A stretch of 64,000 nt of DNA from Candidatus Omnitrophota bacterium (GCA_018895275.1 JAHIOQ010000051.1:46409-110408); one strand, 5' to 3'; counted from the first letter of the stretch, positions 11,481 through 42,211 are shown. Translations and numbers: made by a program. The notes: generated by a model from the letters alone, not told the origin.

Positions 11481-11653
11481 TGTGCCCGTAAGGGTATCTT
11501 TCCTTTGTGCCTTGGTGCCTTGGTGGCTAAAATTTCTACAATTATCCGCCAAATTTTTATTTTTTCTCGCCATGAACATATTCTAGAAATCTCTATTTAT
11601 CTATCCTTATCATCTGAGCTATCAGCGATGAGACAGGAGACAGGAAGATCCAC

Positions 11654-13750
11654 TCAAGGCCTTAGCCGCCGCGGAAAAAGTTCTGCCGCCTTGTCCCGTG
11701 CCTTGCGCGCCTTGTCCTTAGAGCCCTTACGCTCGTAAAAGGCAGCAAGATTATAATATGCCTCAAAATAAGCCGGGTTTATTTCCACCGCCTTAAGATA
11801 GGCTTCTTCAGCCGCGTCATCCTGCCTCATATTTTCATAGATAATACCCAGGTGATTAAATACCGGCGCAAAATTCTCATTAAGCTCCTGTGCCTGTTTA
11901 AGCAGCCTTAACGCATCGTCAAAATCACCTTTTGTACCGTAAGCAGCGGCCAGATTTACCATTGTGCCCACGTCCTCATGGTCGATCGATAATGCCTGCC
12001 CGTAATACTGCATTGCCTCATCGGTCTTGCCCTGACGGGACAATGCCAGGCCGATATTCGTGTACGCGGCCGTATCCTGGGGGTCTTTGTCGATTACCTT
12101 TTGGAAATGCTTAATCGCCGCGTCAAAATTCCCCCGTTCAAGCTCAAGCACGGCTAAATTGTATAATGTATCCGGATTATTTTGATTCATGCGCCAGGCC
12201 TGTTCAAATGACTTTTTCGCCCGTGCATAATCGCCCTTATATTGAAATGCCGTACCCAGATTAAAAAACCAGCGGGATGTATCCTCATCAGCCACGCCGA
12301 ACAAGCGCGAATTACAATATATAAACATTAACAAGAAAACAGCCAGTGAAATAAAAAAGGCCTTATATTTTTTTTCTTTTAAAATACGGCACCACCACAA
12401 AAGCCCCGCACCCGCGAACATAATAAAATACGGCAATATCGGCGCGCGGTAGCGGCTGACGACAAAGAAGATGAGCATAAGCAGCAGATGCGCGGCAATA
12501 AATAAAATCAGCAGCATGATTCCCTTATCTCTTTTAAATGAAACCCCGATGCCGAGCAGCGCCAAGGGGCAAATTATGCCGAACGGAAACAAAATGAGCG
12601 GATGCGCAAAAACCAGCATCTGCAGCAGCGGCGACCATAACCGGAAAAAATAGATGCTTTGGTTTTCCGGAATTTCATAGCCGTTGAACAGGTAATAGAA
12701 TTTACGCATCAGCAGGCCTATAAAATGCATCGGTTGAGTAAAAACATATTCCCCTGTTTTTATCATCCAGTAATTGGAAACCTCGGAAGGCTGCATCTTT
12801 CTTCCGGTAGCGCGTTCTGCCGCTTTTATGGAAGAAACCCAGACATTATCCTCCCAGCCCTTATAAGAAAAATCCCGTGTCGGCGGCACCGCGCTCTTCC
12901 CGTCAGCCATAGGATTATTGCCGATATAAAGATTGATGCCGGCTGAGGAAGAAAGCAGGACAAAGTTTCCGCCTCCCAGATAATTACGTAAAGAAAAAGG
13001 CAGCACCGACAAAACAGTGCCCAGAAAAAGAAAAATCACCGACTGAAAGGCAATTTTATTAACGATTATCTTCAGCTTGCCTGCGAGTTTTTGTGGAGGC
13101 ACTGCCGTTTGCTCTTGTTTCTGCTCTTTTTCCAAGCTGAAGAAATATACCCAAACGCAAAGCATCGGAAAAAACATAATGATATTCACGCTGGTTTGCA
13201 GGCTAATGCCGAAGAGTACACCGCAGCTGGCCCATTTCCATAAGGCGGGTTTTTCCATGCAGCGCAAAAGCGCAAGCAGAAGAATAAGATTAAGGCAGAT
13301 TGTCAGGCCGACACTTAGAAACTCCGCGTCAAAATAGATCAAGACCCCGGAAAGGCTGCAGACAAGCGCAGCCCATGCGCCGATGCAACGGTTAAACACT
13401 TTTTTACCCAGCATATAGACCAGCACACAGTTAAAAGCTCCCATGATCATCTGCGCTACACGGGCAGCAACAAAGCCCTTACCTAAAAATTTAAAAAGTA
13501 ACGCCAGAAAATAAATATAGAGCGGAACCCTTGGCATAACAACCCCTTTAACAAACCAGTCCCCCGCAGAAAGACGTAAAGCCCCACCATAGTGAGAAAG
13601 AGCATCAATAATCGGGCTTGTAAAAAAAGGCGAGTTCCTGTATTGGTAAAGGTATACTAATCGTAAAAAAAACCCGACAAGAAAGATTCCCCAAACAAAG
13701 AATAGTTCTTTGAGCCGTAAATACTTTATTTCTTTTTTTTCCATATCCAT
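11654..13750 (-). CDS. GT-C fold glycosyltransferase (PMT_2/ArnT-like, GT39/GT83-type) with a C-terminal TPR repeat domain
   Basis: 698 aa. About 11 N-terminal TM helices resemble dolichyl/undecaprenyl-phosphate-sugar dependent transferases. The C-terminal 230 aa consist of 6-7 TPR repeats (AxxYxxLGxxY patterns). Confidence 0.65.
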   Translation of the reverse strand: MDMEKKEIKYLRLKELFFVWGIFLVGFFLRLVYLYQYRNSPFFTSPIIDALSHYGGALRLSAGDWFVKGVVMPRVPLYIYFLALLFKFLGKGFVAARVAQMIMGAFNCVLVYMLGKKVFNRCIGAWAALVCSLSGVLIYFDAEFLSVGLTICLNLILLLALLRCMEKPALWKWASCGVLFGISLQTSVNIIMFFPMLCVWVYFFSLEKEQKQEQTAVPPQKLAGKLKIIVNKIAFQSVIFLFLGTVLSVLPFSLRNYLGGGNFVLLSSSAGINLYIGNNPMADGKSAVPPTRDFSYKGWEDNVWVSSIKAAERATGRKMQPSEVSNYWMIKTGEYVFTQPMHFIGLLMRKFYYLFNGYEIPENQSIYFFRLWSPLLQMLVFAHPLILFPFGIICPLALLGIGVSFKRDKGIMLLILFIAAHLLLMLIFFVVSRYRAPILPYFIMFAGAGLLWWCRILKEKKYKAFFISLAVFLLMFIYCNSRLFGVADEDTSRWFFNLGTAFQYKGDYARAKKSFEQAWRMNQNNPDTLYNLAVLELERGNFDAAIKHFQKVIDKDPQDTAAYTNIGLALSRQGKTDEAMQYYGQALSIDHEDVGTMVNLAAAYGTKGDFDDALRLLKQAQELNENFAPVFNHLGIIYENMRQDDAAEEAYLKAVEINPAYFEAYYNLAAFYERKGSKDKARKARDKAAELFPRRLRP

Positions 13751-15246
13751 AATTTTAGAGTGGGAAAAACAAGTTTATCAAAAATAGTACGCAAAACAAA
13801 CAAGGGCTTCTTAAATATAAACATATTATATTTACTGAAAAATTTAAACGGATTTCTTAAAATTAATTTAAGATTATATGTCCAGTACCATTTTCGCCTT
13901 AAGTTTTCAAGAAAATTGCCGTCAAACTCCTCTGTCTGAAATTTGGACTTGAAGTAATCGAAACAGGTATCATCTTTATTGTCTTTGAAATAGCCTTTTT
14001 TTTTGCAGTAATCATATATTTCAGTTCCCGGCAAAGGATTCGCGATAAACAAGGAAACTCTATCCAGCCTGATCTTATCCATAAACTCCAGGGTACGATA
14101 AATCTGAGCCTTAGACTCTCCAGGAAAGCCGATCATAAAAAAACCATATGTATCAATCCCATAGTCCTTAATCAGTTTTACTGTTCTTACTATCTGCCGC
14201 AAATCTGTAGGCTTTTTCAGGACATCACGCAATATCTGTTCATCACCGCTTTCAACCGCAAGCGTTAGCTCATAACAACCGCTTTGTTTCATAAGGCTGA
14301 CCATTTCTTCATCAAGTGTCTGCGCGGCAATCCCATTGGGAGTATTCCAGCTAAAGTTAAATTCGCGTTCGATCATGCCGCGGAAAATATCTTTTGCCCT
14401 TTGAGAATCTAAAGTCAGGTTATCATCGAAAAATTTAAGTTCTCGAATACCAATGGATTTAAGGTGTTCCATTTCTTTGAGCACGCCCTTAACTGAACGC
14501 GGCCTGTAAGTTCTGCCCCAGAAATGACAGGAACTGCAGAAAGCGCATTGAAAAGGACAACCGCGGGAGGTAATCATATTCATTGCCGGAGACTGACGGC
14601 TAATCAGCCCCATGGGTAGCCCAATACGAAAATATTTTTCTAAAGGAAGCAAATCTCTTGCCGGCATTGGAATTGAATCAATATCTTCAATTAAGCGCGC
14701 CCGGGGGTTTATCCTCACCTTTTCGTTATCTCGGAAAGCAATCCCGTCTATAAGGCTAAAATCATCGCCCGATGAAATAGAATCCATAAGTAATTTAAAA
14801 GGCTTCTCACCTTCCCCGAGCACGACAAAATCAATGTTTTGATCGTTTAAGCACTCATGCGGTAAAAAGGTGGGATGCGTGCCGCCGATAACAGTGATGA
14901 TATCCTTTGATACTGATTTTGCAGCTTCGCATATCTGCGCTACCACGGAAAACTGGCTGGAGTAAAGACAAGAAATCCCGACTGCGCCCGGATCAAATCT
15001 GCTTATATGATTTTTGATCTGTTCTATGGACAGTCCGTAGCAAAGAAATTCCCCCTTTATCTTCCTTTCTGAATTATAGCCTTCTACAGCAGCATCAAGC
15101 AGCCGTACATCATAATCATTGCGTAAAAAAGCGCCAAGATACGTTATCCCCAAAGGCGGCATTATCTGCTTTGGGCTTTCCGAGGAAAAAACCACGGGAG
15201 GAAAAATCAGAAGAATTTTTTTTATATCCCGGCTCGAGATTATCAT
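13726..15246 (-). CDS. B12-binding domain-containing radical SAM protein (class B)
   Basis: It has an N-terminal cobalamin-binding Rossmann-like region (ILLIFPPVVF..PPLGITYLGAFL) and a radical SAM core with SRGCPFQCAFCSS. It overlaps both neighbouring genes. Confidence 0.8.
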   Translation of the reverse strand: MIISSRDIKKILLIFPPVVFSSESPKQIMPPLGITYLGAFLRNDYDVRLLDAAVEGYNSERKIKGEFLCYGLSIEQIKNHISRFDPGAVGISCLYSSQFSVVAQICEAAKSVSKDIITVIGGTHPTFLPHECLNDQNIDFVVLGEGEKPFKLLMDSISSGDDFSLIDGIAFRDNEKVRINPRARLIEDIDSIPMPARDLLPLEKYFRIGLPMGLISRQSPAMNMITSRGCPFQCAFCSSCHFWGRTYRPRSVKGVLKEMEHLKSIGIRELKFFDDNLTLDSQRAKDIFRGMIEREFNFSWNTPNGIAAQTLDEEMVSLMKQSGCYELTLAVESGDEQILRDVLKKPTDLRQIVRTVKLIKDYGIDTYGFFMIGFPGESKAQIYRTLEFMDKIRLDRVSLFIANPLPGTEIYDYCKKKGYFKDNKDDTCFDYFKSKFQTEEFDGNFLENLRRKWYWTYNLKLILRNPFKFFSKYNMFIFKKPLFVLRTIFDKLVFPTLKLWIWKKKK

Positions 15247-16745: not shown

Positions 16746-16803
16746 AAGATTTTCCTTTTAAAACCGCTCAATTTAATTTTAAAGGCGCTCAACAAAAAAT
16801 AAT

Positions 16804-17962: not shown

Positions 17963-19381
17963 ATGAATATAGCACTCATTCGACCTCCCAAAATCAGCGG
18001 CGCCTTTGAGAAGATATTGATTCAGGAGCCGGTCAATATTGCCTATCTGGCCGCTTTCCTCAAGGCAAAGGGGTATCAGGTCTGCATCTGGGACTTTGAG
18101 GTCGAGCCGTTTACCGAGAGCGCGGTGCGGGAAAAAATCTCCCGGTTTTCAGCGGATGTTGCCGCGATAACCGCGATGACTCCGACGATAAATAACGCGC
18201 ACGAAACAGCGCTAATGCTTAAGAAAATCAAACCCTCAATAGTTATCGTTGCCGGAGGCGCGCATGTATCGGCTTTACCGGAAGAAACTTTGCGCGACTT
18301 TCCCGCGTTTGATTATGTTGTCGCCGGCGAGGGAGAAATTCCCCTGGCTGAGCTTTGCCGGAAAGTCGCGAAAAAACAGGCCCCCTCGGAGGTTCCCTGC
18401 GTTGCCTGGCGAAATAACGGGACAATAACCTTAAACAAACCGGGCTTGCCGATAGAAGACCTGGACTCCATCCCCTTTCCACAGCGCAGCCTTTTTAATC
18501 CGCTGCTCTATAAGAACGCCTATGCCGCGGGGATTTCCATGTACGGAAAACGCTCCACGGTTGTATTTACTTCCCGCGGCTGTGCGCAGGATTGCACCTT
18601 TTGCGCCGTGAAAAAGACATCCGGGCCCCGCGTAAGATTCCGCAGCGCGGAGAATGTGATTAAGGAGCTCACCGAATGCCGCGACATATTCGGATATAAT
18701 CACATTACATTTGAGGATACAAACCTCACCCTTAACCGCGAACGCTTCCTTAATATATGCGCAGGCCTGCGCAAACTAAAACTTACCTGGGACTGCCAGA
18801 CAAAGGTGAGCCTTGTTGATAAAGAATTAATCGATATAATGAAGGCCGGCGGCTGTTTGAAGATCGCTTACGGCGTAGAATCAGGAAGCCCGAAAATGCT
18901 CGCTTTAATGAAGAAAAACATAACCCCGGAACAAATCCGACGCGCGTTTCAACTCACGCATCAGGCCGGGATTGTCGCCTGCGGTTTTTTTATCCTCGGC
19001 ACGCACCCGGAAGAAACGAACGATGATGTGCGGCAAACAGAAGCCCTGATTCATGAAATCAAGCCCGATGTGTTTCAACTGGGGATTATTTGCCCTTATC
19101 CGGGTACCGAGATATATTCGATCATGAAAAAAGAAGGGCTTCTTCCGCAGGCCGACTGGAAAAAGTTCAACTTCATGCACAGCCGTCCGCAATGGGGAAC
19201 AAAACATCTTAGCCCTGCCGCGCTTGTGTCCTGGCAAAAAAAGATTTATATGCGTTATATCTTAACACCGCATTTCATTCTATTCGTATTCAGGAAAATG
19301 CTCAATCCGCGCGAAATCCCGCAGACAATCCGATTAGGCCTGTCCCTGCTCAAATACCTTCTCCTTGAAAAACGCGGCTGA
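17963..19381 (+). CDS. B12-binding domain-containing radical SAM protein (class B)
   Basis: It has IALIRPP..PVNIAYLAAFL and TSRGCAQDCTFCAV. It is the only plus-strand gene of the cluster. Confidence 0.8.
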   Translation: MNIALIRPPKISGAFEKILIQEPVNIAYLAAFLKAKGYQVCIWDFEVEPFTESAVREKISRFSADVAAITAMTPTINNAHETALMLKKIKPSIVIVAGGAHVSALPEETLRDFPAFDYVVAGEGEIPLAELCRKVAKKQAPSEVPCVAWRNNGTITLNKPGLPIEDLDSIPFPQRSLFNPLLYKNAYAAGISMYGKRSTVVFTSRGCAQDCTFCAVKKTSGPRVRFRSAENVIKELTECRDIFGYNHITFEDTNLTLNRERFLNICAGLRKLKLTWDCQTKVSLVDKELIDIMKAGGCLKIAYGVESGSPKMLALMKKNITPEQIRRAFQLTHQAGIVACGFFILGTHPEETNDDVRQTEALIHEIKPDVFQLGIICPYPGTEIYSIMKKEGLLPQADWKKFNFMHSRPQWGTKHLSPAALVSWQKKIYMRYILTPHFILFVFRKMLNPREIPQTIRLGLSLLKYLLLEKRG

Positions 19382-23976: not shown

Positions 23977-25425
23977 ATGGCCTTTAAGCAGCGTTTGCTT
24001 CAAAAACAAATACAAAAAATGATTATGTCGGTTAAGATGCAGCAATCAATGCAGATACTGCAGCTGCCGATTGTCGAGATTGATCAGTTGATCGCGGAAG
24101 AAATAGCCTCCAATCCTCTACTGGAAGATAATTCGATATCCTTAAAAAATGACGCCGGGCCGGAACAAAGCCAAAACACGGACCCGGAGGCCGATTCCGA
24201 AGCAAAAATTCCCGACAATACCGTCTCGGAAACATCCCCCCTGGACTATGAAAAAAACAAAAATTTCGATTTGGACGAAAACATCTGGTCTTCAGACTTC
24301 ACGGATAGAAATAAGGTCGCCCAGGCGATAGAATCGCATAATTTTCAGGAAACGCTTATAACCAAGCCTTCCACGTTTCAGGAGGAACTTTTACTGCAAT
24401 TCCGTTTTATAAATGATGCCCCGGAAGACGTTGCCGTTGCCGAAGAAATCATCGGCAATATCGATGAAAACGGATATCTGGCGGCAAGCCTGGAAGAAAT
24501 CGCCGCTGCGATTGACTGCTCTATGGAAAAAACGGAAAAAATCCTAAAACAGATACAAAGCCTTGACCCCGCGGGTATCGGCGCGCGCGATTTAAAAGAA
24601 TGCCTGCTGATTCAGCTTCGCCGCCAGGGAAAATCCACTTCTATCGAGGCGGAAATCGTAGAAAAGTTCTTAAACGAATTGGCGGCAAAAAAATACGCGC
24701 TAATCAGCAAGGCCTTAAAAATTTCCCTGCCGCAGGTAAAAAAACACTCGGAACACATCAGCCGGCTGGACCCAAAACCCTGCCGTAATTATGCGCCCGG
24801 CACTTTAAGAATAGTGCCCGACGTAATTCTGGAGAAAACACCGGAGGGATACGAAATAATTATAAACACAAAAAATATCCCCGAACTTTCTATCAGCCAG
24901 ATGTACAAAAAGCTTATTAAGGACAAGGCCTGCCCGAAAGAAACGGTGCAATTCATAAAGGAAAAGCTCACCAGCGCGCAAAATCTTATTAACGGCCTGC
25001 AGCAGCGGCATCAGACCCTTGAAAAAGTAACCACCTGCATCTTTGAGTATCAGGATGAATTTCTTGAAAAGGGCTTAAATAGTATTAACCCCCTCACGCA
25101 CAAGGATGTCGCGGAAAAACTGGGGGTACACCCTTCGACTATCAGCAGAACCGTCGCGAATAAGTATATCCAAACGCCGTTTGGAACTTACGCGTTAAAG
25201 GTATTTTTCTCGCAGGCAATTCCCTCGGAAAAAGGCGGGATGTCAAACCAAAAGGTAAAGGCCGCCCTGGATGAAATCATTAAAACCGAACCCGATGATT
25301 CTCCCCTGAGAGACCAGGAGATTGTCGATATCCTAACGGGTAAAGGAATGCGCATTTCCCGGCGAACTGCGACAAAATACCGCAACGCGCTTAAGATACC
25401 TCCGGCGCATTTACGGCGAAAATAG
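23977..25425 (+). CDS. rpoN: RNA polymerase sigma-54 factor
   Basis: 482 aa. It has the glutamine-rich N-terminus MAFKQRLLQKQIQKM..MQQSMQILQL, a core-binding region, and a C-terminal HTH plus RpoN box (ISRRTATKYRNALKIP). Confidence 0.85.
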   Translation: MAFKQRLLQKQIQKMIMSVKMQQSMQILQLPIVEIDQLIAEEIASNPLLEDNSISLKNDAGPEQSQNTDPEADSEAKIPDNTVSETSPLDYEKNKNFDLDENIWSSDFTDRNKVAQAIESHNFQETLITKPSTFQEELLLQFRFINDAPEDVAVAEEIIGNIDENGYLAASLEEIAAAIDCSMEKTEKILKQIQSLDPAGIGARDLKECLLIQLRRQGKSTSIEAEIVEKFLNELAAKKYALISKALKISLPQVKKHSEHISRLDPKPCRNYAPGTLRIVPDVILEKTPEGYEIIINTKNIPELSISQMYKKLIKDKACPKETVQFIKEKLTSAQNLINGLQQRHQTLEKVTTCIFEYQDEFLEKGLNSINPLTHKDVAEKLGVHPSTISRTVANKYIQTPFGTYALKVFFSQAIPSEKGGMSNQKVKAALDEIIKTEPDDSPLRDQEIVDILTGKGMRISRRTATKYRNALKIPPAHLRRK

Positions 25426-28478: not shown

Positions 28479-28507
28479 TATCCGCCTCCTTAACCTAATA
28501 TCCTTTA

Positions 28508-28567
28508 GCCACTAAGACACTAAATTACAAAATATTTATTTTCTTCGTGCCTTGGTGTCTTCGTGGC
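28508..28567. promoter_or_regulatory. inverted pair of the 13-nt motif GCCACTAAGACAC / GTGTCTTCGTGGC, about 30 nt upstream of PilZ
   Basis: Motif at 28508-28520 and its near-perfect reverse complement at 28555-28567. The same motif recurs at six or more other intergenic sites. Confidence 0.4.
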
Positions 28568-28654
28568 AAATTTATTCGCCAAAAGTCAAAAGTATTTTAT
28601 TTATTTTATCACAACCATCTTAAAAATAAAAGCTTTTGAAAGTGAACAGCCTTA

Positions 28655-30334: not shown

Positions 30335-30335
30335 T

Positions 30336-32569: not shown

Positions 32570-32600
32570 CTATAAAATAGCCACCCAGACTCATTAAATT

Positions 32601-32915
32601 CTATTCCAACCCCAGGGCAAAATTTATTGCTTTATTAACCGCCTCCATTTTCTCTGCCCGAAGCGCGCAAATCCTTTCGGTGATAATACTCTTTCTAACC
32701 GTAGTAACCGTATCGAGATTTATCACGCAGGCTTGCGGCAAACCGTCCTTTTTATCCAAAAAAACTTCTACCGGAATATTCCGAACCGTAGTCGTAATTT
32801 GAGCCACGGTTACGGCATTGCGTACATTATAGGCCTCGTCACGAGAAAGTAAAAGCACCGGGCGTCTGCCCACCGGCTCCGGCTGCTGCGACCACCAAAC
32901 CTCTCCCCGTCTCAT
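32601..32915 (-). CDS. type II toxin-antitoxin system toxin, PemK/MazF family endoribonuclease
   Basis: MRRGEVWWSQQPEPVGRRPVLLLSRD..AVTVAQITTTVRNIPVEV..ACVINLDTVTTVRKS follows the MazF/PemK pattern. It overlaps the upstream antitoxin gene by 4 nt. Confidence 0.75.
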   Translation of the reverse strand: MRRGEVWWSQQPEPVGRRPVLLLSRDEAYNVRNAVTVAQITTTVRNIPVEVFLDKKDGLPQACVINLDTVTTVRKSIITERICALRAEKMEAVNKAINFALGLE

Positions 32916-33169
32916 TTCCAGCCCTCTTCTTCAAAGGCATCCGCGGAAAGCTTCTCATAAACCTTTATTTCGGAAACAGACTCCGGTTTATTGAGATATC
33001 CTTCCTGATACTGTTTTATCAGCTTCTTCTCTTCCATGTTTTTTAGCCAGAAACGAATCGCCGTATCTATAATTGCGCTTCTTTGCATCCCCAATCCTTT
33101 GCGGATTTTTTCAATGCGCATTAAATCTTCCTTCGGTATGCTGATGGCAATTTTAGCGAATTTCTGCAT
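32912..33169 (-). CDS. ribbon-helix-helix (CopG-like) antitoxin
   Basis: KIAISIPKEDLMRIEKIRKGLGMQRSAIIDTAIRFWL is an RHH fold pattern. The start was set to the ATG at 33169, which has an AAGGAG Shine-Dalgarno 6 nt upstream. Confidence 0.65.
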   Translation of the reverse strand: MQKFAKIAISIPKEDLMRIEKIRKGLGMQRSAIIDTAIRFWLKNMEEKKLIKQYQEGYLNKPESVSEIKVYEKLSADAFEEEGWK

Positions 33170-33257
33170 CTCAATCTCCTTCATACTAAAGTATAACATA
33201 TTTCATACCACTTGGCAAGTTGAATGCAAAACTAAACCACACGATTACACGCGATTT

Positions 33258-33671
33258 TCACCAGATTCTTCTTTTTACTTCCAAACTTTCCGTGCCAAAA
33301 TTCAACAATAAACCAACTCTATTCTTTGTAGCTTTGAGATAGTTTAAAAGCTGGGCTTCATCGTTTTTAGTTAAGCCGGTAGTAGCTTTTATTTCTAATA
33401 TTACTTTGTCCTCAATAATCAAATCAGGCGTATATTTCCTTGGAATCAGTAACTCTTTATACCAAATATCTAATTCTTTCTGTAACTCAAAAGGTATCTT
33501 GCTTATTTTCAGTTCGTAGCATAATGCTTCCTGATAGACATATTCCAGGAAGCCATTCCCTAATATCCTATGGACTTCCATGGCTGCGCCTATAACCTTC
33601 TCGGTTAAGTCATGATAAAGCCACTTGTCTGCCTTATCGTGTGTTAATCTAGTGAAATCTTGTGGTTTCAT
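33258..33671 (-). CDS. GxxExxY family protein (intact copy)
   Basis: 137 aa with the eponymous motif GNGFLEYVYQEAL. The N-terminus MKPQDFTRL resembles the peptides encoded by the TIR elements. Confidence 0.75.
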   Translation of the reverse strand: MKPQDFTRLTHDKADKWLYHDLTEKVIGAAMEVHRILGNGFLEYVYQEALCYELKISKIPFELQKELDIWYKELLIPRKYTPDLIIEDKVILEIKATTGLTKNDEAQLLNYLKATKNRVGLLLNFGTESLEVKRRIW

Positions 33672-33747
33672 TTTTTAATATCGTTATATCCATTTCGTGG
33701 TTTATTTTCTTAGTGCTTGGTGAGTTTATGATTAAAACCGGATTTTA

Positions 33748-34062
33748 TTAAAACCCTTTTGTTTCCGACTTGCTGACAATGCGCACAAAACGTATGCCCA
33801 TCTCAAATTTTTTGTTGCCGGAATTTTTATTTTCTTTAAGCCAGACCACCTCAGCGAGGGCATAATAAGGGCTGCTCATGCGTGATATGGCCACTTCAAC
33901 CTCAAGCCGGGAACCGAGGCTAAGCTGCCTATCCGTACAAATGCACACCCCGCCCGCGGAAATGTCCTTTGTCATTGTATTTTCCACGTCATTACTCTGC
34001 TCCAAACAATGCCTAAGCGGCATCTCCTGAACTAAACGCATATGTTTTCTTTTTTCAGCCAA
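33748..34062 (-). CDS. PilZ domain protein (c-di-GMP binding)
   Basis: It has RxxxR (EKRKHMRL) and DxSxGG (KDISAGGVCI) motifs. The likely start is the TTG at 34062, which has a GGGAGGAG Shine-Dalgarno. The 13-nt motif lies just upstream at 34085-34097. Confidence 0.65.
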   Translation of the reverse strand: MAEKRKHMRLVQEMPLRHCLEQSNDVENTMTKDISAGGVCICTDRQLSLGSRLEVEVAISRMSSPYYALAEVVWLKENKNSGNKKFEMGIRFVRIVSKSETKGF

Positions 34063-34108
34063 TGTAAACTCCTCCCTTCTTTTCGACACCAAGACACTAA
34101 ATTTTATT

Positions 34109-36532
34109 TTAATTATTGCTTTGCGACAATACCACGGTTTTCGGCATATAGGTTATCGTGACGTCCTCGAGCACGGGAATCTCTTCATAATTAGTCGCGG
34201 TATCATTATATCCGCTATAAAAGTAGGCCCTGTATGTAATAGACGGATTTGTACTTGAATCAATATATCCACCGCCGGCCTGCAATGCTCCCGCCGGATG
34301 AACAACCTCCGGCCCGGGACTAATCGACATATCCTCTCCTGCGGTAAAGCCGGTAGTAACATAAATCCGTTCCGTGTATCCTGCCGCGTATCCTCCTACG
34401 GCATTAGAAGACAGCGTTGTCCCGGCAGAAATAGTACCCCATTCAATTGTGTCCCAGGCCAGCGTCTCTGTAGGGTCTAAAATGTTTGATGTATACACAG
34501 CCTGCTTGGGGATAACGCGCACATTATCGATATTCGGACGATTATTCGAGCCGTACAAACAAATGGGCCCTTCACCAGGAAGTGACGCCCAGCTATGAGA
34601 GATGTTAAGCGGCGCCGCTCCCCAATATGCATCTGCGGTCGCGGTATTGCCCTTCACTACCAAATGAAATGTCTTATTCGGCTGATACGAACAATCCACG
34701 GATTTATTATTATTCACACAATCCAAAATCAATTTATTGCTCAATGCCGCCATCTCCGGCTTGAAATAGACGTAGTTACCAACATTAAACCATCCGCTTT
34801 CATTCTGTAAAATAGAGATATAAAGAGTTGCTTCCGCGCTAGCTCCCTGGGAACGAAAAAGTAGATGCCCGACATTCATTGCCTTTTGATAAATCGGCCC
34901 GTGCCAATACCACATACCTTGAGAATATGCTGGGTCCGGATTTGGTGGAGGCGCTGGCGGCACCGGAACCTCTGAATCCTCCCAGTTCTCCGGTATTGAA
35001 CGTAATGGTAATCCCGACCGTGACTTAGAGCCATCCACTTCATCTTCAATATACATAATAGCCGAAAAATCCGACAGCCGCCATTCCAGTCCGGTTCCTA
35101 ATCTAATAATCGGCCAATAATTGGTACCAGTAGTTACCAGTTTCCCTCCGGAAATCGCATAATTGCCCTTAACTTTCAGCCATACGGCAGAGCTCATTGC
35201 CGCATCGCTGAAATCATCCCAGAATCCGGGTTTTACGGCGTTTTTCACTATGCGGGCCTTTGTTGAATCATAGGCACTTGCCGGATACAATCCCGGATAA
35301 CATACACTTAAATTCAGCGGGAAATCATCACGCGTAGTGCAGCGGCCATAATTAGTAAAGGAATCAAACTCCGCTTTTGTCGTTTCATATATTTTCCGGT
35401 AAATACGCACCGTCTTTGTAATCCGCTTTTTCGCGCCACGATATTCTCCCAATGCCTCTATTTCATAGCAGCCCCCGGAATCAAAACAAAAATAGGTCGT
35501 GGGCGAACGCGTGGTAGAATCCAGCGGGTCATAACGATTGGGATCGGTGAAAATCAATAAATTATCCAGATCAGCGCCGGAAATAATAGTCGCAAGGAAC
35601 CGCTGAAATTCGCCGCGCGCGGACAAAAAGTTATTAACATTTACATCCGGATCCTTTCCGTCAAACGGATTCAGGTTCCGCCGGCTGACAATCTTGTCGG
35701 CCAAGTCATCCTCATCACCGCTGATCATCGGCCCAAGCACGGCTTTAAGCACTTCTTTCGGCGCGGTATTCACGTTTACAAACACCTTACGCGTATGCCC
35801 GGCAACCGGAGTTTTCCCTGATTTATTCAGATAAAAAATGCCGTCATCTTCGTCTCCGTATAAGGTTATAAAATTCTTTAACGCATTATACTTACCCTGG
35901 GCGATACCTGCAGTCAGTTTTATTTCTTCTTTTGAACGAAATATCTTATCAGGAAGACTCTTCCGGCAAACGATAAGCGCTTGCGCCTCTGCTTGGGAAA
36001 GTCCCAAATTATCAAGAATCTGCACTAACTCAGCCTCAGCAGCGGAATCCGGTAAAGGCGTATTGATATTTATCAGGCTGGCGCAGTCAATTACTTTAAG
36101 TTTACAGGTAATATCCTCGGAAAATTTATAGGATATGCCATTACCCACCTCTCCATCGAGGTTATCAAATGAAGGATATTTTGCGTCGGCAAGGTCTACC
36201 GTGTTTTCATTTCCCGGCTCGGTATTGTTTCCGTTATAAAACCAACTCTCGCCAGTCGTATCACAGGGATCATTTTTTGCTCCTCCCGTGCCATTACTTC
36301 CCATAGTCCCATATTTCAATTCTTCAATCGCGCGGCTAATCCCGGCCTCGGCAATCAACTCCGCCCTGAACTGATTCACGTAATTCCGCGTTGCCTGCAG
36401 CTCGAGGCGGCTGAAAGCGGAAAACCCTACGCTAACCATCGCCAGGATGGAAAGCACTCCCACGACCAAAACCAATGCTATTCCTGAGTTTCTTTTATAA
36501 ATATTCATCATCTTTTTTAAATTATAACACAA
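34109..36532 (-). CDS. large extracellular protein with a GspK-like minor pseudopilin N-terminus
   Basis: 807 aa. The N-terminus KRNSGIALVLVVGVLSILAMVSVGFSAF resembles T2SS GspK / minor pilin anchors that lack Glu+5. The rest is Gly/Asn/Thr-rich with no recognisable catalytic motifs. Confidence 0.45.
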   Translation of the reverse strand: MCYNLKKMMNIYKRNSGIALVLVVGVLSILAMVSVGFSAFSRLELQATRNYVNQFRAELIAEAGISRAIEELKYGTMGSNGTGGAKNDPCDTTGESWFYNGNNTEPGNENTVDLADAKYPSFDNLDGEVGNGISYKFSEDITCKLKVIDCASLININTPLPDSAAEAELVQILDNLGLSQAEAQALIVCRKSLPDKIFRSKEEIKLTAGIAQGKYNALKNFITLYGDEDDGIFYLNKSGKTPVAGHTRKVFVNVNTAPKEVLKAVLGPMISGDEDDLADKIVSRRNLNPFDGKDPDVNVNNFLSARGEFQRFLATIISGADLDNLLIFTDPNRYDPLDSTTRSPTTYFCFDSGGCYEIEALGEYRGAKKRITKTVRIYRKIYETTKAEFDSFTNYGRCTTRDDFPLNLSVCYPGLYPASAYDSTKARIVKNAVKPGFWDDFSDAAMSSAVWLKVKGNYAISGGKLVTTGTNYWPIIRLGTGLEWRLSDFSAIMYIEDEVDGSKSRSGLPLRSIPENWEDSEVPVPPAPPPNPDPAYSQGMWYWHGPIYQKAMNVGHLLFRSQGASAEATLYISILQNESGWFNVGNYVYFKPEMAALSNKLILDCVNNNKSVDCSYQPNKTFHLVVKGNTATADAYWGAAPLNISHSWASLPGEGPICLYGSNNRPNIDNVRVIPKQAVYTSNILDPTETLAWDTIEWGTISAGTTLSSNAVGGYAAGYTERIYVTTGFTAGEDMSISPGPEVVHPAGALQAGGGYIDSSTNPSITYRAYFYSGYNDTATNYEEIPVLEDVTITYMPKTVVLSQSNN

Positions 36533-37254: not shown

Positions 37255-37326
37255 TTCACCTCCTTTCATTTTAGCGTTAGTAATCATATTTAATTTTTTC
37301 ATTTTTTTCACCCCCCTCTATAGTTT

Positions 37327-37989: not shown

Positions 37990-38038
37990 GCTCTGTTTTG
38001 TTAATAGTTTGCAATCAGTAATTTTAAAATGCTAGAAA

Positions 38039-38067
38039 AGTATACCATATAAAAAAAAAATTGTCAA
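38039..38067 (-). promoter_or_regulatory. sigma70-like promoter (TTGACA-N17-TATACT) reading into 37989-36613
   Basis: The plus strand reads AGTATA at 38039-38044 and TGTCAA at 38062-38067, giving -35 TTGACA and -10 TATACT with a 17-nt spacer on the minus strand. Confidence 0.4.
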
Positions 38068-38094
38068 TATTAATTAAATAATTTTAAAAAGACT

Positions 38095-38730
38095 TTAATT
38101 GAAAATTTTCATTTCTATAACTACTGATTTTGCAACATGTTGCAATCCTAAAAATTCTTCTTCAGAATTATTTTGGGAATAAATTTTAGAAATTCTTATC
38201 AAGCTGCCTTCAATATTCTTACCGGCCAACCGTTTTATTAAAAAATAAAGCTGTTGTTTGTAGTAGCTGTTGGTTATTAATTCATTCGCCGTATAAAAAT
38301 ATAAAACGCTTTGAAATCCTTTCTCCGTCTGCACCAGGAGATAATTTACCGGCACCTTATGGCCGGCACCTATATCCAAAATTACAGTTTCCTTGCGTAA
38401 CAACTCATTCTTACCCGAGCCCAGATAGCAATACTCCGGCGGATGTATGCTGGAACGCCGGCTCGCGCTCTTAAGGATATAGAGATATATTTTTTCGCCC
38501 TCGCTATTGCCATATTCAGCGAGGACTGCGCCGCGCGTGCCGAGAATATTGAGAAACTCTTCATTGATCGGAATATCACGCGAAAAAATCCATTCGCCCA
38601 GACGGCCCGGAACCTGCGGCTTTTCCACGTCATTGCCCTCCTGCACCTTGGCCGTTTTAATCCAGGCAATAAAAATTGCGCAGAACAGTAAAATAATAAT
38701 ACTAATCGTTAAGCTATCGATTTTCTTCAT
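38095..38730 (-). CDS. exosortase-associated EpsI family protein
   Basis: 211 aa with a single N-terminal TM helix then a periplasmic domain. It is located next to the exosortase gene, as is typical for EpsI. Confidence 0.55.
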   Translation of the reverse strand: MKKIDSLTISIIILLFCAIFIAWIKTAKVQEGNDVEKPQVPGRLGEWIFSRDIPINEEFLNILGTRGAVLAEYGNSEGEKIYLYILKSASRRSSIHPPEYCYLGSGKNELLRKETVILDIGAGHKVPVNYLLVQTEKGFQSVLYFYTANELITNSYYKQQLYFLIKRLAGKNIEGSLIRISKIYSQNNSEEEFLGLQHVAKSVVIEMKIFN

Positions 38731-39005
38731 AATGTAGACTCAAATATCCTTTAGCTACTAAGTCACAAAGGCTCTAAAAATACAAACAGATAAGATATTT
38801 CCATTTTATTCCTCTCACAAAGTTCACCAAGCACACAGAGAAATCAAATTACTCCATTGATAACTCTTTTTATTCCGTTTTCAATATTTCTCTGTGGACT
38901 TTGCCCGCTAAGTATTTCTCTGCGATTGCCCGCAGCTAGGTCTCGCCATGTTTTTTGGCGGATGCCCTCTGTGAGAGACTATTAAGCTGCCGCTATTTCC
39001 TTCTT

Positions 39006-39052
39006 GCCTTGGTGCCTTCGTGGCTAATTTATCCGCCAAAAGTCAAAAAACC
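39006..39052. repeat. 47-nt repeat element CCTTGGTGCCTTCGTGGCTAATTTATCCGCCAAAAGTCAAAA containing the 13-nt motif
   Basis: It is near-identical to 28547-28594 and similar to 11509-11565. It contains TTGACT on the minus strand and overlaps the exosortase stop codon. Confidence 0.5.
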
Positions 39053-39855
39053 ATAAAAAATTTCCGCAGTAAGGCCAGGCCTAAAAAAGCAAAAACAAAT
39101 ACAAGCATCCCGGAAAAATCGTGAAACCAGCCCATTGCCACGCCGGCACCGTATACATAATAGACAAGTATAAGCAGTATAATGCGCACGACATTGGAGA
39201 TAAAGGCAACCGGCAAGGCGGCTAAGAAAAACAAGATTCTTCTTTTAAACGAAAATCCGGTCAAATAAGCAAACAACAAACTTAATGCCGAAAGCGCGAT
39301 AAGCGATTTTAACCCGCTGCAGGGGGTCCCCACGGTCAAAACTCCGTTCGGCAGATAAACCAGGCTTCCGGCATTTTTTAAGGGGACGATAATTCCGATG
39401 ACTGAACATGCCATACGCGCCGCAAGAATCTTCAGGTAAAAACTCAATCCCAGCGTCATCGCATTCGGCAAAGGTATCATAAAAAACAAAAATCCCAAAG
39501 GAAACGCAAGTGTCCGCAGGCATGGAGCCCCGTAATTATAGAGCACCAAACCGCAAACAGCCGCGATAAAAAACAAGCCGCTGAGGAAATTAATCTCAAA
39601 ATAAAAGGCGAAAAGATGCACAGCCAGGGAAACAAGCAGCAAAATCAGGCCGGCATTGCTGGGGTTCGGGGAAAGATTCCGAAGTTGTTCTTTTTTTAAA
39701 AAAATCAGATACGCGACAACAAACGGGATTAAATACCCATGGGCATAAAAGGATTCCGCCTCGGAAAAACGATATCGCATCCATGATAACGTCGGCAGAA
39801 AAACCAACAGCGTCAAAAGGATCACTAAAACCAACTTGATAAATTTAACAACCAT
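39043..39855 (-). CDS. exosortase (Xrt family transpeptidase)
   Basis: 270 aa with 8 predicted TM helices. The N-terminal segment FYAHGYLIPF, the active-site region TPCSGLKS (conserved Cys) and the downstream NVVRI (conserved Arg) are exosortase hallmarks. Confidence 0.7.
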   Translation of the reverse strand: MVVKFIKLVLVILLTLLVFLPTLSWMRYRFSEAESFYAHGYLIPFVVAYLIFLKKEQLRNLSPNPSNAGLILLLVSLAVHLFAFYFEINFLSGLFFIAAVCGLVLYNYGAPCLRTLAFPLGFLFFMIPLPNAMTLGLSFYLKILAARMACSVIGIIVPLKNAGSLVYLPNGVLTVGTPCSGLKSLIALSALSLLFAYLTGFSFKRRILFFLAALPVAFISNVVRIILLILVYYVYGAGVAMGWFHDFSGMLVFVFAFLGLALLRKFFMVF

Positions 39856-40709
39856 TATTCCTTACTAAGCTCTTTAATCTCTTCAATTGCTTTTTTGGCC
39901 AAATCTCCTTCGGGATATTTTTCCACGATTTGTTGATAATATTTTACCGCTTCTTCTTTATTTTTAAGATGATAGTGATAGATTTTAGCTATATTAAAAA
40001 CAGCGCATGCTTGAATAATCGGGCCAACCTCTCTATCGCTAAGCGACTTGAGGAAAGCTATCGCTTCCTCTTCTCCTTCAAGATAAAGCATGCAACTAAC
40101 CGCATAATTGAGCGAAACGATCTTCACCATTTCCGATTGACTATTCTCTATCGCATCTTTATAAGTTTTTAGCGCGCTTCGAAAAGCAAGGCCAGATTTT
40201 TCGGATTCCCCTCTTTTTTTATACTGCTGAGCTAAATAAAAAGGAACCATCAATCCAATTTCAGTATAAGGATACGCCGTGGATATTTTCTTATAGGTCT
40301 TCTCCGCCTCATCCCAGTTATCCGCTCGTTCGTAAAGCACGGCAATGTTTTTTAATGCAGCTACACAAATGGCATCTTGATGGGGAAAAGTCTTGCAAAT
40401 AAGTTCATATTGTTTACGCGCCCCTTCAGAATCATTTTTCATCTCATAAATCATCGCCAGATTAAAATAAGCCAGCGGAGCGCTCTTCCAATACGGGTAC
40501 CGCAGCGTTATCTCTTTAAAAGAAAAAATCAGGGCATCCATCTCCTCTTTTTCAATGTTTTCATTATGCTTTTCTTTTTCAACCAATTTCTGTAATTTAT
40601 TATTGGCCTTCCAGAACATCTTTTCCGCAACATAAGTACCGTCGCCGCACCCGGAACACAAGAAATTTACAAGTAGAAACATTAATATGAATATTTTAAT
40701 ATGTTTCAT
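39855..40709 (-). CDS. TPR repeat lipoprotein
   Basis: It has a lipobox FLCSGC after a signal peptide and multiple TPR-like helical repeats. Its stop overlaps the exosortase start. Confidence 0.55.
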   Translation of the reverse strand: MKHIKIFILMFLLVNFLCSGCGDGTYVAEKMFWKANNKLQKLVEKEKHNENIEKEEMDALIFSFKEITLRYPYWKSAPLAYFNLAMIYEMKNDSEGARKQYELICKTFPHQDAICVAALKNIAVLYERADNWDEAEKTYKKISTAYPYTEIGLMVPFYLAQQYKKRGESEKSGLAFRSALKTYKDAIENSQSEMVKIVSLNYAVSCMLYLEGEEEAIAFLKSLSDREVGPIIQACAVFNIAKIYHYHLKNKEEAVKYYQQIVEKYPEGDLAKKAIEEIKELSKE

Positions 40710-41545
40710 TTATTCCCCTCTTTTGTTAACAAAAGATGGCAAGCCGAGGCAATGATAAAATAATTTGAAATAAGCAGGAAGAAAATTTCAGCGCCTAAAA
40801 TTACCAACGTAAATTCAGGGAAAAACGGGAAAAACTTATTTATTATAGAAACGATTTTAAATTTAGCCAAAACTAAAGCAAAATTTATGACCCTGAAAGA
40901 AAAAACTAAAAACAGCGTAAAAGCAAAGTGATTTTTAAAGAACAAGGTTGATTTTTTGATGCTGGAAAATAATCCGTGTTTATAAACAATCAAAAACGCT
41001 ACTGCATAAACAAGAGCGGATTCCATTACAACAAAAAATATGAATGAAAAAAAATAAGCGCCATAATAACCTATAGTTAAAAAACGCTCCGATCCAACAA
41101 GGTGAAGCACAATAAGTTTTGGAATTATGTAAATCAGAAATAGCCCTATGGCATATATTATTCCAAGCATAAATAAAGCGGGAATTTTTCTAACCGCTCG
41201 GTTAAAGTTTCCCCAGTATCTAACAGAACTTTTTTCCACCTCTTTTTGAAAAACCGCGGCAACCGTAGCCGCAATGCTCACTCCTGCAAAAGCTAAATAA
41301 ATAAAAACTCTTCCTAAAAACACAAGCCTTGGCAATGCAAGAAAGTTCAGCGGATAATGCAAAAAATGCTCTCCCATAAACGCCTTGATTAACGGCGCCA
41401 GAACAATAGATACCGGAGGCCGCGGCGCGTAATACCAAATAGCAAGCCACGAGACTTCAAACAAAGCGAGAATCAAAAAAGGCAGTACGATCGAAAAATT
41501 GTTTAATGAAAATTTAATGCTGTTAAATATATTTACCTTATGCAT
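40706..41545 (-). CDS. polytopic membrane protein of unknown function
   Basis: 279 aa with about 8 hydrophobic segments. It overlaps the TPR gene start and is the first structural gene of the exosortase operon. Confidence 0.4.
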   Translation of the reverse strand: MHKVNIFNSIKFSLNNFSIVLPFLILALFEVSWLAIWYYAPRPPVSIVLAPLIKAFMGEHFLHYPLNFLALPRLVFLGRVFIYLAFAGVSIAATVAAVFQKEVEKSSVRYWGNFNRAVRKIPALFMLGIIYAIGLFLIYIIPKLIVLHLVGSERFLTIGYYGAYFFSFIFFVVMESALVYAVAFLIVYKHGLFSSIKKSTLFFKNHFAFTLFLVFSFRVINFALVLAKFKIVSIINKFFPFFPEFTLVILGAEIFFLLISNYFIIASACHLLLTKEGNK

Positions 41546-41650
41546 ATCTTTTCCTCGGATATCTGGATTAAATTTTATTTCTTACGATTTCGATTATTTC
41601 CGCGGCTAAAGCAATCGCCTCCACGGAATCTTCTTTCCGATATTTAGGAA

Positions 41651-41983
41651 TTAAGCGGCCTCATATAATACTTTCCCATCTCTCAGCGCTCGTCTGATAA
41701 AACTGTTCCATCGGCTCATATCATTTATCTCTCGCGGCGTATAAACGAATATATCCACTCCGACATTCGGCTCGATATCCATATATACACTATCCAGCCT
41801 ATCCAAAAACCGCTGTTTCGTATTTTTAACAATGATTAGATCTATATCACTGGTTAAACCGACCCTGCCGGTAGCTAAGGAACCGAAAAGTATTATTTTC
41901 CGCACGCCGGTTTTATCTATTTTCTTTATAATCCTGGTAAGTTCTTCCTGTAACCTTTTTAGTCTCGGCCCTCTTCCAATCAT
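41651..41983 (-). CDS. nucleotidyltransferase domain protein (MNT-type, minimal nucleotidyltransferase)
   Basis: ILFGSLATGRVGLTSDIDLIIV matches the GS...G...DxD polymerase-beta-like NTase motif. Confidence 0.7.
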   Translation of the reverse strand: MIGRGPRLKRLQEELTRIIKKIDKTGVRKIILFGSLATGRVGLTSDIDLIIVKNTKQRFLDRLDSVYMDIEPNVGVDIFVYTPREINDMSRWNSFIRRALRDGKVLYEAA

Positions 41984-42027
41984 TTTTCCCTGCTCTCTTG
42001 TTTCCCAAACTCCCGCATACTCAACTA

Positions 42028-42056
42028 ACTATACCTAATCAACCGGCCATTGTCAA
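42028..42056 (-). promoter_or_regulatory. sigma70-like promoter (TTGACA-N17-TATAGT) upstream of the MNT/exosortase operon
   Basis: The plus strand reads ACTATA at 42028-42033 and TGTCAA at 42051-42056, giving a consensus -35 and a near-consensus -10 with a 17-nt spacer, about 45 nt upstream of the start at 41983. Confidence 0.45.
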
Positions 42057-42211
42057 CCCTAATGGGCACTTGTTCTTTGGCCACCAAGACACTAAAATAT
42101 TCTTTATTCTCACACAGAGCCGCAAAGTTCACAAAGAATATCTTTAAATTCTATTAATTTGTTTTTTTATTTCTCGCGCCAAGACGCAAAGTCTGCCAGG
42201 ATTAATTATAA

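Follow-up and report, generated by a model that had tools for sequence, protein, structure and literature searches.

A recurrent intergenic motif in an Omnitrophota exosortase locus is probably the arm of small hairpin-forming elements associated with GxxExxY genes

Background

Repetitive extragenic palindromic (REP) sequences, their REPIN forms and the associated RAYT (REP-associated tyrosine) transposases (TnpA-REP, of the Y1 HUH type) form a system in which the gene is flanked by inverted repeats, empty doublets are abundant and no target duplication is made (PMC3116915, PMC3333891, PMC3733652). A tetranucleotide, GTAG or CGTC, is reported to be conserved at one end of the REP (PMC3733652). 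This system is the closest analogue of the elements described here, which were recognized in a stretch of 64,000 nucleotides (nt) from Candidatus Omnitrophota bacterium (GCA_018895275.1 JAHIOQ010000051.1:46409-110408), hereafter the window, where a 13-nt motif, GTGYCTTSGTGGC, recurs between genes. We propose that this motif represents the inverted-repeat arm found at the ends of small insertion elements, which form hairpins and are tied to cassettes that carry a gene of the GxxExxY family, and that the copies in the window are relics of such elements; we give this reading a probability of about 0.78.

Three other classes of element are relevant for comparison. Miniature inverted-repeat transposable elements (MITEs) are derived from insertion sequences, as in the Correia elements of Neisseria or the enterobacterial ERIC/IRU repeats (enterobacterial repetitive intergenic consensus, or intergenic repeat units), and they have target duplications and a transposase-bearing parent. 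Intervening sequences of rRNA interrupt a helix of 23S or 16S rRNA and are removed by RNase III; those of 23S rRNA in Leptospira and Coxiella contain an open reading frame (ORF) for the "S23p" protein, a four-helix bundle. Integron cassettes depend on the integrase IntI and the attI site, and each carries one 3' attC site with a GTTRRRY core.

Results and discussion

Occurrence and structure of the motif

Exact copies of GTGYCTTSGTGGC are four in the window (11515, 28555 and 39012 on the plus strand, 42080 on the minus strand) against 0.00 expected from dinucleotide shuffles, and with up to two mismatches 12 copies were found against 2.19 expected. The motif reported in a preliminary description of this DNA is therefore real and not random, and its coordinates and sequences were reproduced, as was its placement: 10 of the 12 near-copies are intergenic, though intergenic DNA represents 7.6% of the window, and the two coding ones (14316 and 39137, with two mismatches each) are at chance level. 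The sites listed at that time were confirmed, and one degenerate copy on the minus strand, GAGTCTGGGTGGCTA at 32580-32596, had been overlooked; the copy at 33709-33723, then considered reverse-oriented, is in fact forward (GTG...) on the plus strand. The copy at 34085-34097 overlaps the start of a mechanically called ORF (TTG at 34092), but the ribosome-binding site GGGAGGAG favours a start at 34062, in agreement with the non-coding character attributed to it.

The 13-mer is a slice of a tandem array of period 8, for instance GTGCCTTG GTGCCTTG GTGGC, and the arms in full measure about 25 nt (11502-11527, 28543-28567 and 38999-39024). A repeat finder returned a family of about 55 nt at 11497, 28537 and 38994, and another of about 40 nt, in the opposite orientation, at 28501, 34078, 38747 and 42073. 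What we call the type-A arm contains an 8-nt unit repeated in tandem two or three times; the left arm reads GCCAC.AAG.CAC.AAG.CAC.AAG, the right one its reverse complement. Arms in the window are paired in inverted orientation, read on the minus strand, and a pair encloses nothing, nested arms with a possible C-terminal remnant, or an insert of 1.18 kb. Only the paired site folds: the empty hairpin at 28508-28567, in which the outermost 13 nt pair at 12 of 13 positions and the full arms lie about 18 nt apart (34 nt for the 13-nt cores), gave z-scores of -3.3 and -4.2 when folded as DNA, with none of 200 shuffles as good, while single arms do not self-fold (z of -0.65, 0.0 and -0.84).

GxxExxY genes lie between inverted arms in bacteria and archaea

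One of the small genes of the window, at 33258-33671, encodes a protein of the GxxExxY family (PF13366, 2e-40, 138 bits with a cut-off of 22; TIGR04256, 2e-42, 144 bits with a cut-off of 35), which is 100% identical to one in a metagenome-assembled genome of Candidatus Omnitrophica. The family is huge, with no known function and almost no literature; 7,766 of the 8,000 candidates scored were GxxExxY hits (TIGR04256/PF13366) at E<=1e-10. A profile-guided scan, with one genome per species, returned 80 GxxExxY loci, 79 of which entered the analysis of flanks. The bacterial loci belong to WOR-3, Nitrospirota, Nitrospinota, Planctomycetota (including anammox bacteria), Chloroflexota, Bacteroidota, Desulfobacterota-type lineages, Calditrichia and others, the archaeal ones to ANME-1/Methanophagales, Methanosarcinales, Methanomicrobiales, Nitrosotalea and Aenigmatarchaeota. 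By eye, almost all the genes sit between inverted arms made of two or three tandem units of 8-11 nt, with ends of the form (A/T)ACCAC ... GTGGT(A/T), and the next host gene often begins within about 10 nt. For local complementarity between left and right flanks the 79 loci had a median score of 15; displaced flanks had one of 8 and never exceeded 13.5. The cassettes measure 425-565 nt from terminus to terminus.

The two arms vary together. In 40 terminal 16-nt arm pairs, themselves chosen for complementarity, 86.7% of the cells pair, against 68.0% when partners are shuffled among loci (0 of 500 shuffles reached the observed value), and slid registers give 33-50% pairing; double-sided changes are 136, compared with 55.8 in the shuffles. 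The cores of the units pair almost always, and the spacer columns are unpaired in 13-16 of the 40 loci. The termini of these 40 cassettes read CC[AG]C.

The sequence of the units follows the lineage of the protein, with the types CAC[AG]AGATT, CACGGAA, CACGGAT, CACAGAT, CACAGAA, CGCAGAT, CGCGAAT and CACGAAG. In 43 of 53 cases the closest protein neighbour carries arms of the same unit type, where chance would give 12.7 and shuffled labels never gave more than 25; a single type is distributed over five bacterial phyla and four orders of archaea, with proteins 66-79% identical. The CAC[AG]AGA cassette was found in WOR-3, Nitrospirae, Deltaproteobacteria, Planctomycetota and Nitrospinota, and among archaea in ANME-1, Methanosarcinales and Nitrosotalea. 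Since the unit type tracks the protein tree and is shared across phyla, gene and arms travel together.

Cassettes occur also in cultured organisms, where they carry no repeat annotation: in Bacteroides finegoldii the stop codon of radA is followed by TCACCACAGAGGACGCAGAGGACACGGAGG, the GxxExxY gene, CCTCTGTGACCTCTGTGTCCTCTGTGGTGA, 9 nt and the next ATG, and Treponema saccharophilum has a single-unit version of the arms. No obvious phage or plasmid vector emerged for the arms or for the gene, which is present on 8 of 72,556 plasmids and 0 of 50,697 phages; among IMG/VR contigs, 13 carry the type-A arm and 3 the GxxExxY gene.

The arms also bear on annotation. In the subfamily of the window protein the N-terminal extension MKPQDFTRLTQ is the translated left arm AAACCACAAGATTTCACTAGATTAACACA (33640-33671), and in archaeal homologues the protein begins about 10 residues further on. 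Where a start codon or a "hypothetical protein" ORF is called over such arms, the call is probably an artefact of annotation, which accounts for spurious N-terminal extensions of the "MKPQDFTRLTQ / HEGTKGTK" type and for hypothetical ORFs created by the repeats. At loci L004, L005 and L008-L011 (ANME-1/Methanophagales, with a Nitrosotalea record for L008), around position 2001, the GxxExxY frame is open for some 700 nt upstream and enters the preceding host gene with no stop before the left arm, and the ATG of the next gene comes directly after the right terminus (GTGGTTATGAAA); the cassette may there be read as a C-terminal fusion at a conserved site.

Type-A arms in metagenomes

Metagenome contigs were scanned by exact pattern with the 20-nt type-A arm GCCACSAAGRCACSAAGGCA, which was present in at least 120 contigs; the census of type A given in this section rests on the matches listed. 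Among them, 57 of 124 arms are followed or preceded by an inverted partner at no more than 60 nt, and another 8 at no more than 150 nt, which gives 65 of 124; 2 of 124 are near a GxxExxY gene. The commonest form is an empty hairpin of 60-100 nt, the elements as a whole measure 58-225 nt with inverted arms of about 25 nt, and the GC content of the host goes from 0.37 to 0.70 across the 47 contigs with a clear hairpin. Only two GxxExxY genes were found in 718 kb around the arms, and both are exactly between type-A arms: at L127 the gene is intact and 473 nt separate its arms, and at L155 it is truncated.

In the 47 non-redundant hairpins the skeleton of the arm is essentially invariant and the termini are invariantly GCCAC. 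Mid-unit positions agree between the two arms in 28-32 hairpins, against about 17.5 expected. At positions 10 and 18, which lie between units, the two arms differ in a systematic way, with A..G on one arm and G..A on the other. A target-site duplication of at least 4 nt was found in 0 of the 47, and direct repeats of 3 nt in the flanks are weakly in excess (4 against 0.8 expected). Stop-free stretches of at least 150 codons hold 56% of the arms against 86% of the background, which suggests that the arms are depleted from coding sequence, although this proxy for ORFs is poor at high GC.

Two groups of contigs show additional sequence around the hairpin. In L094, L101, L112, L136, L138, L169, L171, L178 and L199 it lies within a larger dispersed repeat of about 170 nt (TTATTGAAATCACATCATGTTTGCGAAGGATTTATC ... 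hairpin ... TTCCGGTTTATCCGGGTTGGG) that adjoins unrelated genes and whose TTTATCCG tail resembles the AATTTATCCGCC tail of the window. In the high-GC soil contigs L092, L128, L183, L191, L140, L102 and L147 GATC often stands immediately next to the type-A termini (GATCA-GCCAC ... GTGGC-TGATC), and it might be part of a longer terminus or reflect a preferred target.

The elements are absent from orthologous junctions of relatives

The region of the window where the motif occurs is an exosortase/PEP-CTERM polysaccharide locus, encoding GT4, TPR, exosortase, EpsI and PEP-CTERM proteins and an 807-aa (amino acids) protein, besides PilZ, a transglutaminase-like protein and an ABC transporter. It was compared with four 20-kb loci (L201-L204) from three related Omnitrophota lineages, in which the exosortase is 62-68% identical (68, 62 and 64%). 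The gene order is kept: GT4, hypothetical protein, TPR, exosortase, EpsI, ..., a protein of about 800 aa, PilZ, transglutaminase-like, ABC and ABC_tran_2. These four loci contain 0 copies of the motif, and so the conservation in orthologous intergenic regions that the preliminary description had named as a check was not observed.

The spacers themselves differ. Exosortase and EpsI overlap by 16-28 nt in the relatives and are 312 nt apart in the window; the junction between GT4 and the hypothetical protein measures 77-104 nt, with no motif, against 666 nt, including an MNT nucleotidyltransferase gene, and the one between PilZ and the transglutaminase-like gene 8-163 nt against about 1180 nt. 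The exosortase of the window is 3-7 residues shorter at its C-terminus than those of the relatives, with its stop codon inside the outer tail of the element. From this comparison it is evident that insertions have entered the gene junctions of the exosortase/exopolysaccharide (EPS) operon more than once in this Omnitrophota lineage, and that one of them breaks the ancestral overlap of exosortase and EpsI. Copies do stand just upstream of several genes, as was said of them, because the elements inserted into tight operon junctions with the right arm abutting the start of the next gene; what looks like a motif in front of unrelated genes, and might be taken for the mark of a regulon, is explained in the same way.

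The same data weigh on the proposal, made in the preliminary description, that the motif is an operator or a promoter module, by which a transcription factor or sigma factor acting on the 13-mer would co-regulate the PilZ, EpsI, GxxExxY and MNT genes. In its favour the copies are intergenic, several lie 20-100 nt upstream of start codons, the three-unit copies on the plus strand are arranged much like a sigma-54 promoter (TGGTGC-N5-TGGCT, GG-N10-GC), and the window includes rpoN. The motif and its host spacers are nevertheless missing from the orthologous junctions, the spacers being insertions, and the same sequence forms self-complementary hairpins in hosts whose GC varies between 37 and 70%. 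The promoter that is common to the relatives (TTGACA-17-TATACT, 38067-38039) has a sequence unlike that of the motif, the two strong promoters of the region lie away from its copies, and no sigma-70-like site coincides with one, the only promoter-like site at a copy being a hit of chance level (9 of 12) on the plus strand at 34083-34110. The sigma-54 look-alike is antisense to all its neighbours, and the sense copies and the typical metagenomic arms of CTTCGTG units have no -24 GG. We consider regulation by such a factor to be scarcely credible. The "longer shared element" formerly described around some copies does exist, with 55 nt and 91% identity between 28537-28591 and 38994-39048, but the TTGACT that it contains was rejected as a sigma-70 promoter, having no -10 partner and overlapping the exosortase stop codon at one site. 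A role as intrinsic terminator was also discarded, as no motif site is terminator-like and the hairpin is not followed by a run of T.

Two observations on the relatives can be added. In L204 the ABC/ABC_tran_2 spacer (19157-19210) has a period-8 array, CTGACCTCTGACTTCTGTTCTCTGGCTTCTG, that may be a solo arm of another unit type. The contig of the closest relative (L205, k141_669776, 2010 nt, exosortase 84%) ends 12 nt after the exosortase stop, where the element of the window begins, consistent with assemblies breaking at these repeats; contig breaks of this kind would find an explanation in the elements.

Interpretation: mobile DNA or RNA structure

The anatomy of the elements, their association with GxxExxY genes, the covariation of inverted arms, the spread across phyla and the absence from orthologous sites are shown by the data above, and on them we build the following explanation. 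Each arm consists of two to four tandem units of 8-11 nt with a CAC (or CGC) core, and the full element, of about 430-560 nt, of a left arm, a GxxExxY gene for a PD-(D/E)XK protein of about 125 aa, and a right arm. Most type-A copies are empty hairpins of 60-100 nt, decayed intermediates also occur, and the window copies would be relics of insertions into tight junctions of the exosortase/EPS operon, partly nested and partly deleted. The elements would be, or would once have been, mobile as DNA: the nuclease may recognise the repeated units on both arms and cut at the termini, in a way akin to the action of RAYT on REP/REPIN, and the empty hairpins could be non-autonomous derivatives mobilised in trans. 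Regulatory effects at the locus, such as hairpins in mRNA or the broken translational coupling of exosortase and EpsI, would be a by-product.

An alternative, compatible with this explanation, is that the elements act as RNA: the arms would form a long stem in mRNA, processed (e.g. by RNase III, as rRNA intervening sequences are) or stabilising or insulating the flanking cistrons as REP and bacterial interspersed mosaic elements (BIMEs) do, the GxxExxY ORF would be expressed from the loop, and retention would be partly due to selection on the host. The elements do lie within operons, in the sense path between co-directional genes and with the right terminus a few nt before a start codon, the arms overlap the start and the stop of the GxxExxY ORF, the paired site folds well, G-T pairs (G-U if RNA) are tolerated, and one group of hairpins is old enough to have diverged. 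However, inter-unit positions are often or systematically unpaired while the unit cores are invariant, and a stem needs no identical 20-nt primary sequence, yet the sequence is the same at host GC of 37-70%. Solo arms are common (34084-34101 and 42079-42096 in the window, and arms in metagenomes), the orientation of the asymmetric hairpins relative to flanking genes shows no clear preference (3 against 6, by crude ORF calls), and the relatives do without the element at all the junctions. No Rfam family matches either: Rfam 15 gave 0 matches in the window at gathering thresholds, and 13 hairpin loci had only sub-threshold matches of miRNA-precursor type (24-41 bits, against gathering thresholds of 71-114). 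The conserved cores, unpaired spacers and asymmetric positions 10 and 18 fit units recognised by a protein better than selection for a continuous helix. We therefore regard the RNA role as rather unlikely and favour mobility as DNA with recognition of units, because the cores are invariant with free spacers, the arms are asymmetric, the arm types match protein subfamilies and the sequence is the same at differing host GC.

Several points weigh against the explanation in terms of insertion elements. No transposition event was observed, nor any clean pair of filled and empty sites with exact junctions, and the lack of a target-site duplication of at least 4 nt in the 47 hairpins rules out a classical DDE mechanism. 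Covariation is expected of the arms in any inverted-repeat family, and it cannot separate roles at the DNA and RNA levels; moreover, the 40 arm pairs had been pre-selected at 12 or more complementary positions out of 16, so that the contrasts with shuffled and slid pairs are informative and the raw percentage is not. Among the matches listed, 98% of the type-A arms lie more than 1 kb from any GxxExxY gene, and therefore the link of type A with the nuclease rests on two metagenomic cassettes and on the fragments in the window; the C-terminal "fragment" at 38844-38882 is so short that its similarity has no significance. As the group inside the repeat of about 170 nt illustrates, other elements can include the hairpin as a module. 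Concerning the protein, the family is without demonstrated activity, a sequence search of the PDB found no solved homologue, and an AlphaFold2 model built with 25 close homologues (mean pLDDT 54) was too poor for a fold search and was not used.

A broader and only tentative hypothesis is that GxxExxY cassettes form a hitherto unrecognised class of mobile elements in prokaryotes, able to pass between bacteria and archaea, with a nuclease that recognises the tandem 8-11-nt units on both arms of its own hairpin and moves the element without target duplication. Under this hypothesis the empty hairpins would be mobilised in trans like REPINs and their loops would serve as landing pads for further cassettes, for which the nested copies at 38754-39024 and 32580-33724 would be examples, and a very large family would gain a role. 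The arms make such a role of the nuclease, acting on its own arms, testable. Neither Rfam nor the searchable literature contains a description of the arms or of the GxxExxY flanks; papers available only by subscription were outside the search, and an earlier description is possible. A widespread, unannotated and apparently undescribed class of repeats can be named.

Comparison with described elements

The preliminary description had also suggested a small REP-like family, which was right in kind and missed the link of the arms to cassettes of GxxExxY nuclease genes. Like REP/REPIN, the arms are short dispersed intergenic repeats; two of them in inverted orientation make a hairpin, and such doublets are far commoner than the gene. 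The gene linked to them itself lies between inverted copies of the repeat, the repeat type is matched to the protein lineage and there is no target-site duplication. The differences are the following: a single arm is made of tandem direct units of 8-11 nt, not of an imperfect palindrome of 20-40 bp as the REP unit is; the GTAG/CGTC head is absent and the termini are GCCAC or AACCAC; the protein is a PD-(D/E)XK nuclease of about 125 aa (PF13366/TIGR04256), unlike the Y1 HUH RAYT; several gene copies and arm types coexist in one contig; and whole cassettes are common to bacterial and archaeal phyla at 66-79% protein identity. The result is a stereotyped package of inverted, co-varying tandem-unit arms, shared across distant phyla and domains, whose empty hairpins are far more numerous than the genes.

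With MITEs the elements share a small size, the absence of coding capacity, terminal inverted repeats, intergenic position and co-transcription as hairpins in mRNA, and they look as if internal deletion had produced them from an element that has identical ends and carries a gene, with a decay series in one contig. Unlike MITEs they have no target-site duplication of at least 4 nt and their arms are made of tandem units. The ends of a MITE are those of an autonomous element with a transposase gene; type-A ends are shared with the GxxExxY cassettes at L127 and L155, which encode no recognised transposase but a nuclease that might take that part. As in the intervening sequences of rRNA, a small ORF lies in inverted repeats with a long stem, and the occurrence is sporadic and seemingly due to horizontal acquisition; all the copies found here are instead between protein-coding genes, in an mRNA operon, and the ORF family is a different one.

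The likeness to integron cassettes leads to another alternative, in which the hairpins would be attC-like sites and the GxxExxY, MazF/RHH (ribbon-helix-helix) and MNT genes would be cargo captured by a recombinase encoded elsewhere. The cargo is indeed small and promoterless, with toxin-antitoxin genes of the sort usual in chromosomal integron arrays; the sites, which are imperfect inverted repeats, fold in single-stranded form, and insertions are nested or serial. On the other hand, no integrase, transposase or RAYT/Y1 was found among the scanned proteins of the 64-kb window, nor any attI; arms are on both sides of the gene instead of in one compact 3' site, with termini that by eye are (A/G)CCAC/GTGG(T/C) and not the attC core, and the cassettes are single and scattered in operon junctions, with no array. 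Capture of this kind seems to us very improbable.

Relics in the window

The positions of the elements in the window are collected in Table 1. They form a decay series that goes from the intact cassette to an N-terminal fragment, a possible C-terminal fragment, an empty hairpin and a solo arm, with nested insertions in addition.

Table 1. Arms, cassettes and relics in the 64-kb window
Feature	Position	Strand	Remarks
Type-B arm pair, further deleted	638-757	-	88-94% identical to the 63-kb copy, shorter remnant inside
Type-B right arm ATCTGCGTTCATCTGCGTCC	11359-11378	-	CGCAGAT units; closes the GxxExxY fragment at 11379-11477
GxxExxY N-terminal fragment MNFEPLSEKEESIAERIVDAAYALHKNYFKIL (to a stop)	11379-11477	-	Directly downstream of type-A arm
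Type-A left arm GCCACCAAGGCACCAAGGCACAAAGG	11502-11527	-	Three 8-nt units; includes motif copies 11515-11527 and, overlapping, 11507-11519
Empty type-A hairpin	28508-28567	-	ABC_tran_2/PilZ-1 junction; left arm 28543-28567, right arm 28508-28524
Outer tail TTGACTTTTGGCGAATAAATTT	28568-28589	-	Common to 39025-39046, 91% identity; the "longer shared element" of the preliminary description
Degenerate type-A right arm GAGTCTGGGTGGCTA	32580-32596	-	10 nt before ATG of the transglutaminase-like gene; right boundary of 1.18-kb insert
Intact GxxExxY cassette	33232-33668	-	Gene 33258-33671; third arm type
Degenerate type-A-like left arm CTCACCAAGCACTAAG	33709-33724	-	Just after PilZ-2; left boundary of the insert ending at 32580-32596
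Solo type-A right arm TTTAGTGTCTTGGTGTCG	34084-34101	-	About 22 nt before PilZ-2 start; self-fold z 0.0
Nested relic	38754-39046	-	Exosortase/EpsI junction; arms, tail and short ORF end
Three consecutive right-arm relics	42079-42193	-	GT4/MNT junction; 42173-42193, 42109-42138, type-A 42079-42096
Type-B arm pair GGACGCAGATGAGCGCAGAT ... ATCTGCGAAAATCTGCGTCC	63099-63275	-	Encloses truncated GxxExxY gene (ORF 63049-63267)

The fragment at 11379-11477 (MNFEPLSEKEESIAERIVDAAYALH...) matches the N-terminus of the GxxExxY protein of L127 along 25 aa with 56% identity (E of 1.7e-4 against the six-frame pieces of the window), and the gene of L127 is itself bracketed by type-A arms. The relic at 11359-11527, of which this fragment is part, is a chimera with a left arm of type A and a right arm of type B. 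In the intact cassette the left arm AAACCACAAGATTTCACTAGATTAACACA occupies 33640-33668, within the annotated N-terminus MKPQDFTRLT, and the right arm AAATCGCGTGTAATCGTGTGGTTTAG follows the stop codon at 33232-33257. The 1.18-kb insert bracketed by the two degenerate arms carries the intact GxxExxY gene together with an RHH/MazF pair (32601-33199).

In the nested relic the outer set comprises the tail at 39025-39046, a type-A left arm (38999-39024) and a type-A right arm (38754-38774), with about 225 nt between the arms; inside there are arms of CACAGAG type at 38964-38977, 38913-38928 and 38885-38899, with a right arm at 38811-38843, and the short ORF end ENGIKRVINGVI (to a stop) at 38844-38882, which resembles the GxxExxY C-terminus and has no significance at this length. 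The exosortase stop codon in the outer tail is the TGA of TTGACT (39043-39045). No partner arm was found for the solo arm at 34084-34101, and the one at 42079-42096 is likewise without self-fold.

For the gene enclosed by the type-B pair at 63099-63275, the match to TIGR04256 covers only profile positions 1-41 (37.5 bits). Units of type B are GGACGCAGAT-N-CGCAGAT, in two inverted pairs 62 kb apart and a third right-arm copy at 11359-11392; copies within the contig are 88-94% identical despite unrelated contexts.

Neighbouring genes and minor observations

Nearly all the genes of the window are on the minus strand. The small genes already named (the GxxExxY PD-(D/E)XK gene, the RHH/MazF pair and the MNT nucleotidyltransferase) are interspersed in the polysaccharide locus, and elsewhere the window encodes queuosine enzymes, RuvABC, EF-G, radical-SAM enzymes, RpoN and further EPS functions. 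The rpoN (sigma-54) gene (23977-25425, plus strand) is one of only two plus-strand genes found in its stretch, and it is preceded by an intergenic region of 353 nt without arm-type repeats.

The MNT gene (41651-41983) has a near-perfect sigma-70 promoter, TTGACA-17-TATAGT, at 42056-42028, and is followed by the remnant of an ORF of about 30 codons that, from its sequence, may be the stub of a HEPN partner; the block that contains them (41546-42211) is as a whole an insertion between GT4 and the next gene. The intergenic region 57705-58022 holds another decayed small-gene relic, a 134-nt copy of the 3' end of MazF (57891-58024; 81% nucleotide identity, 44 codons, nearly identical protein). The same intergenic region also contains second copies, 84-87% identical, of two stretches from the region of the polysaccharide flippase gene, 55196-56638 (57744-57888 against 56173-56316).

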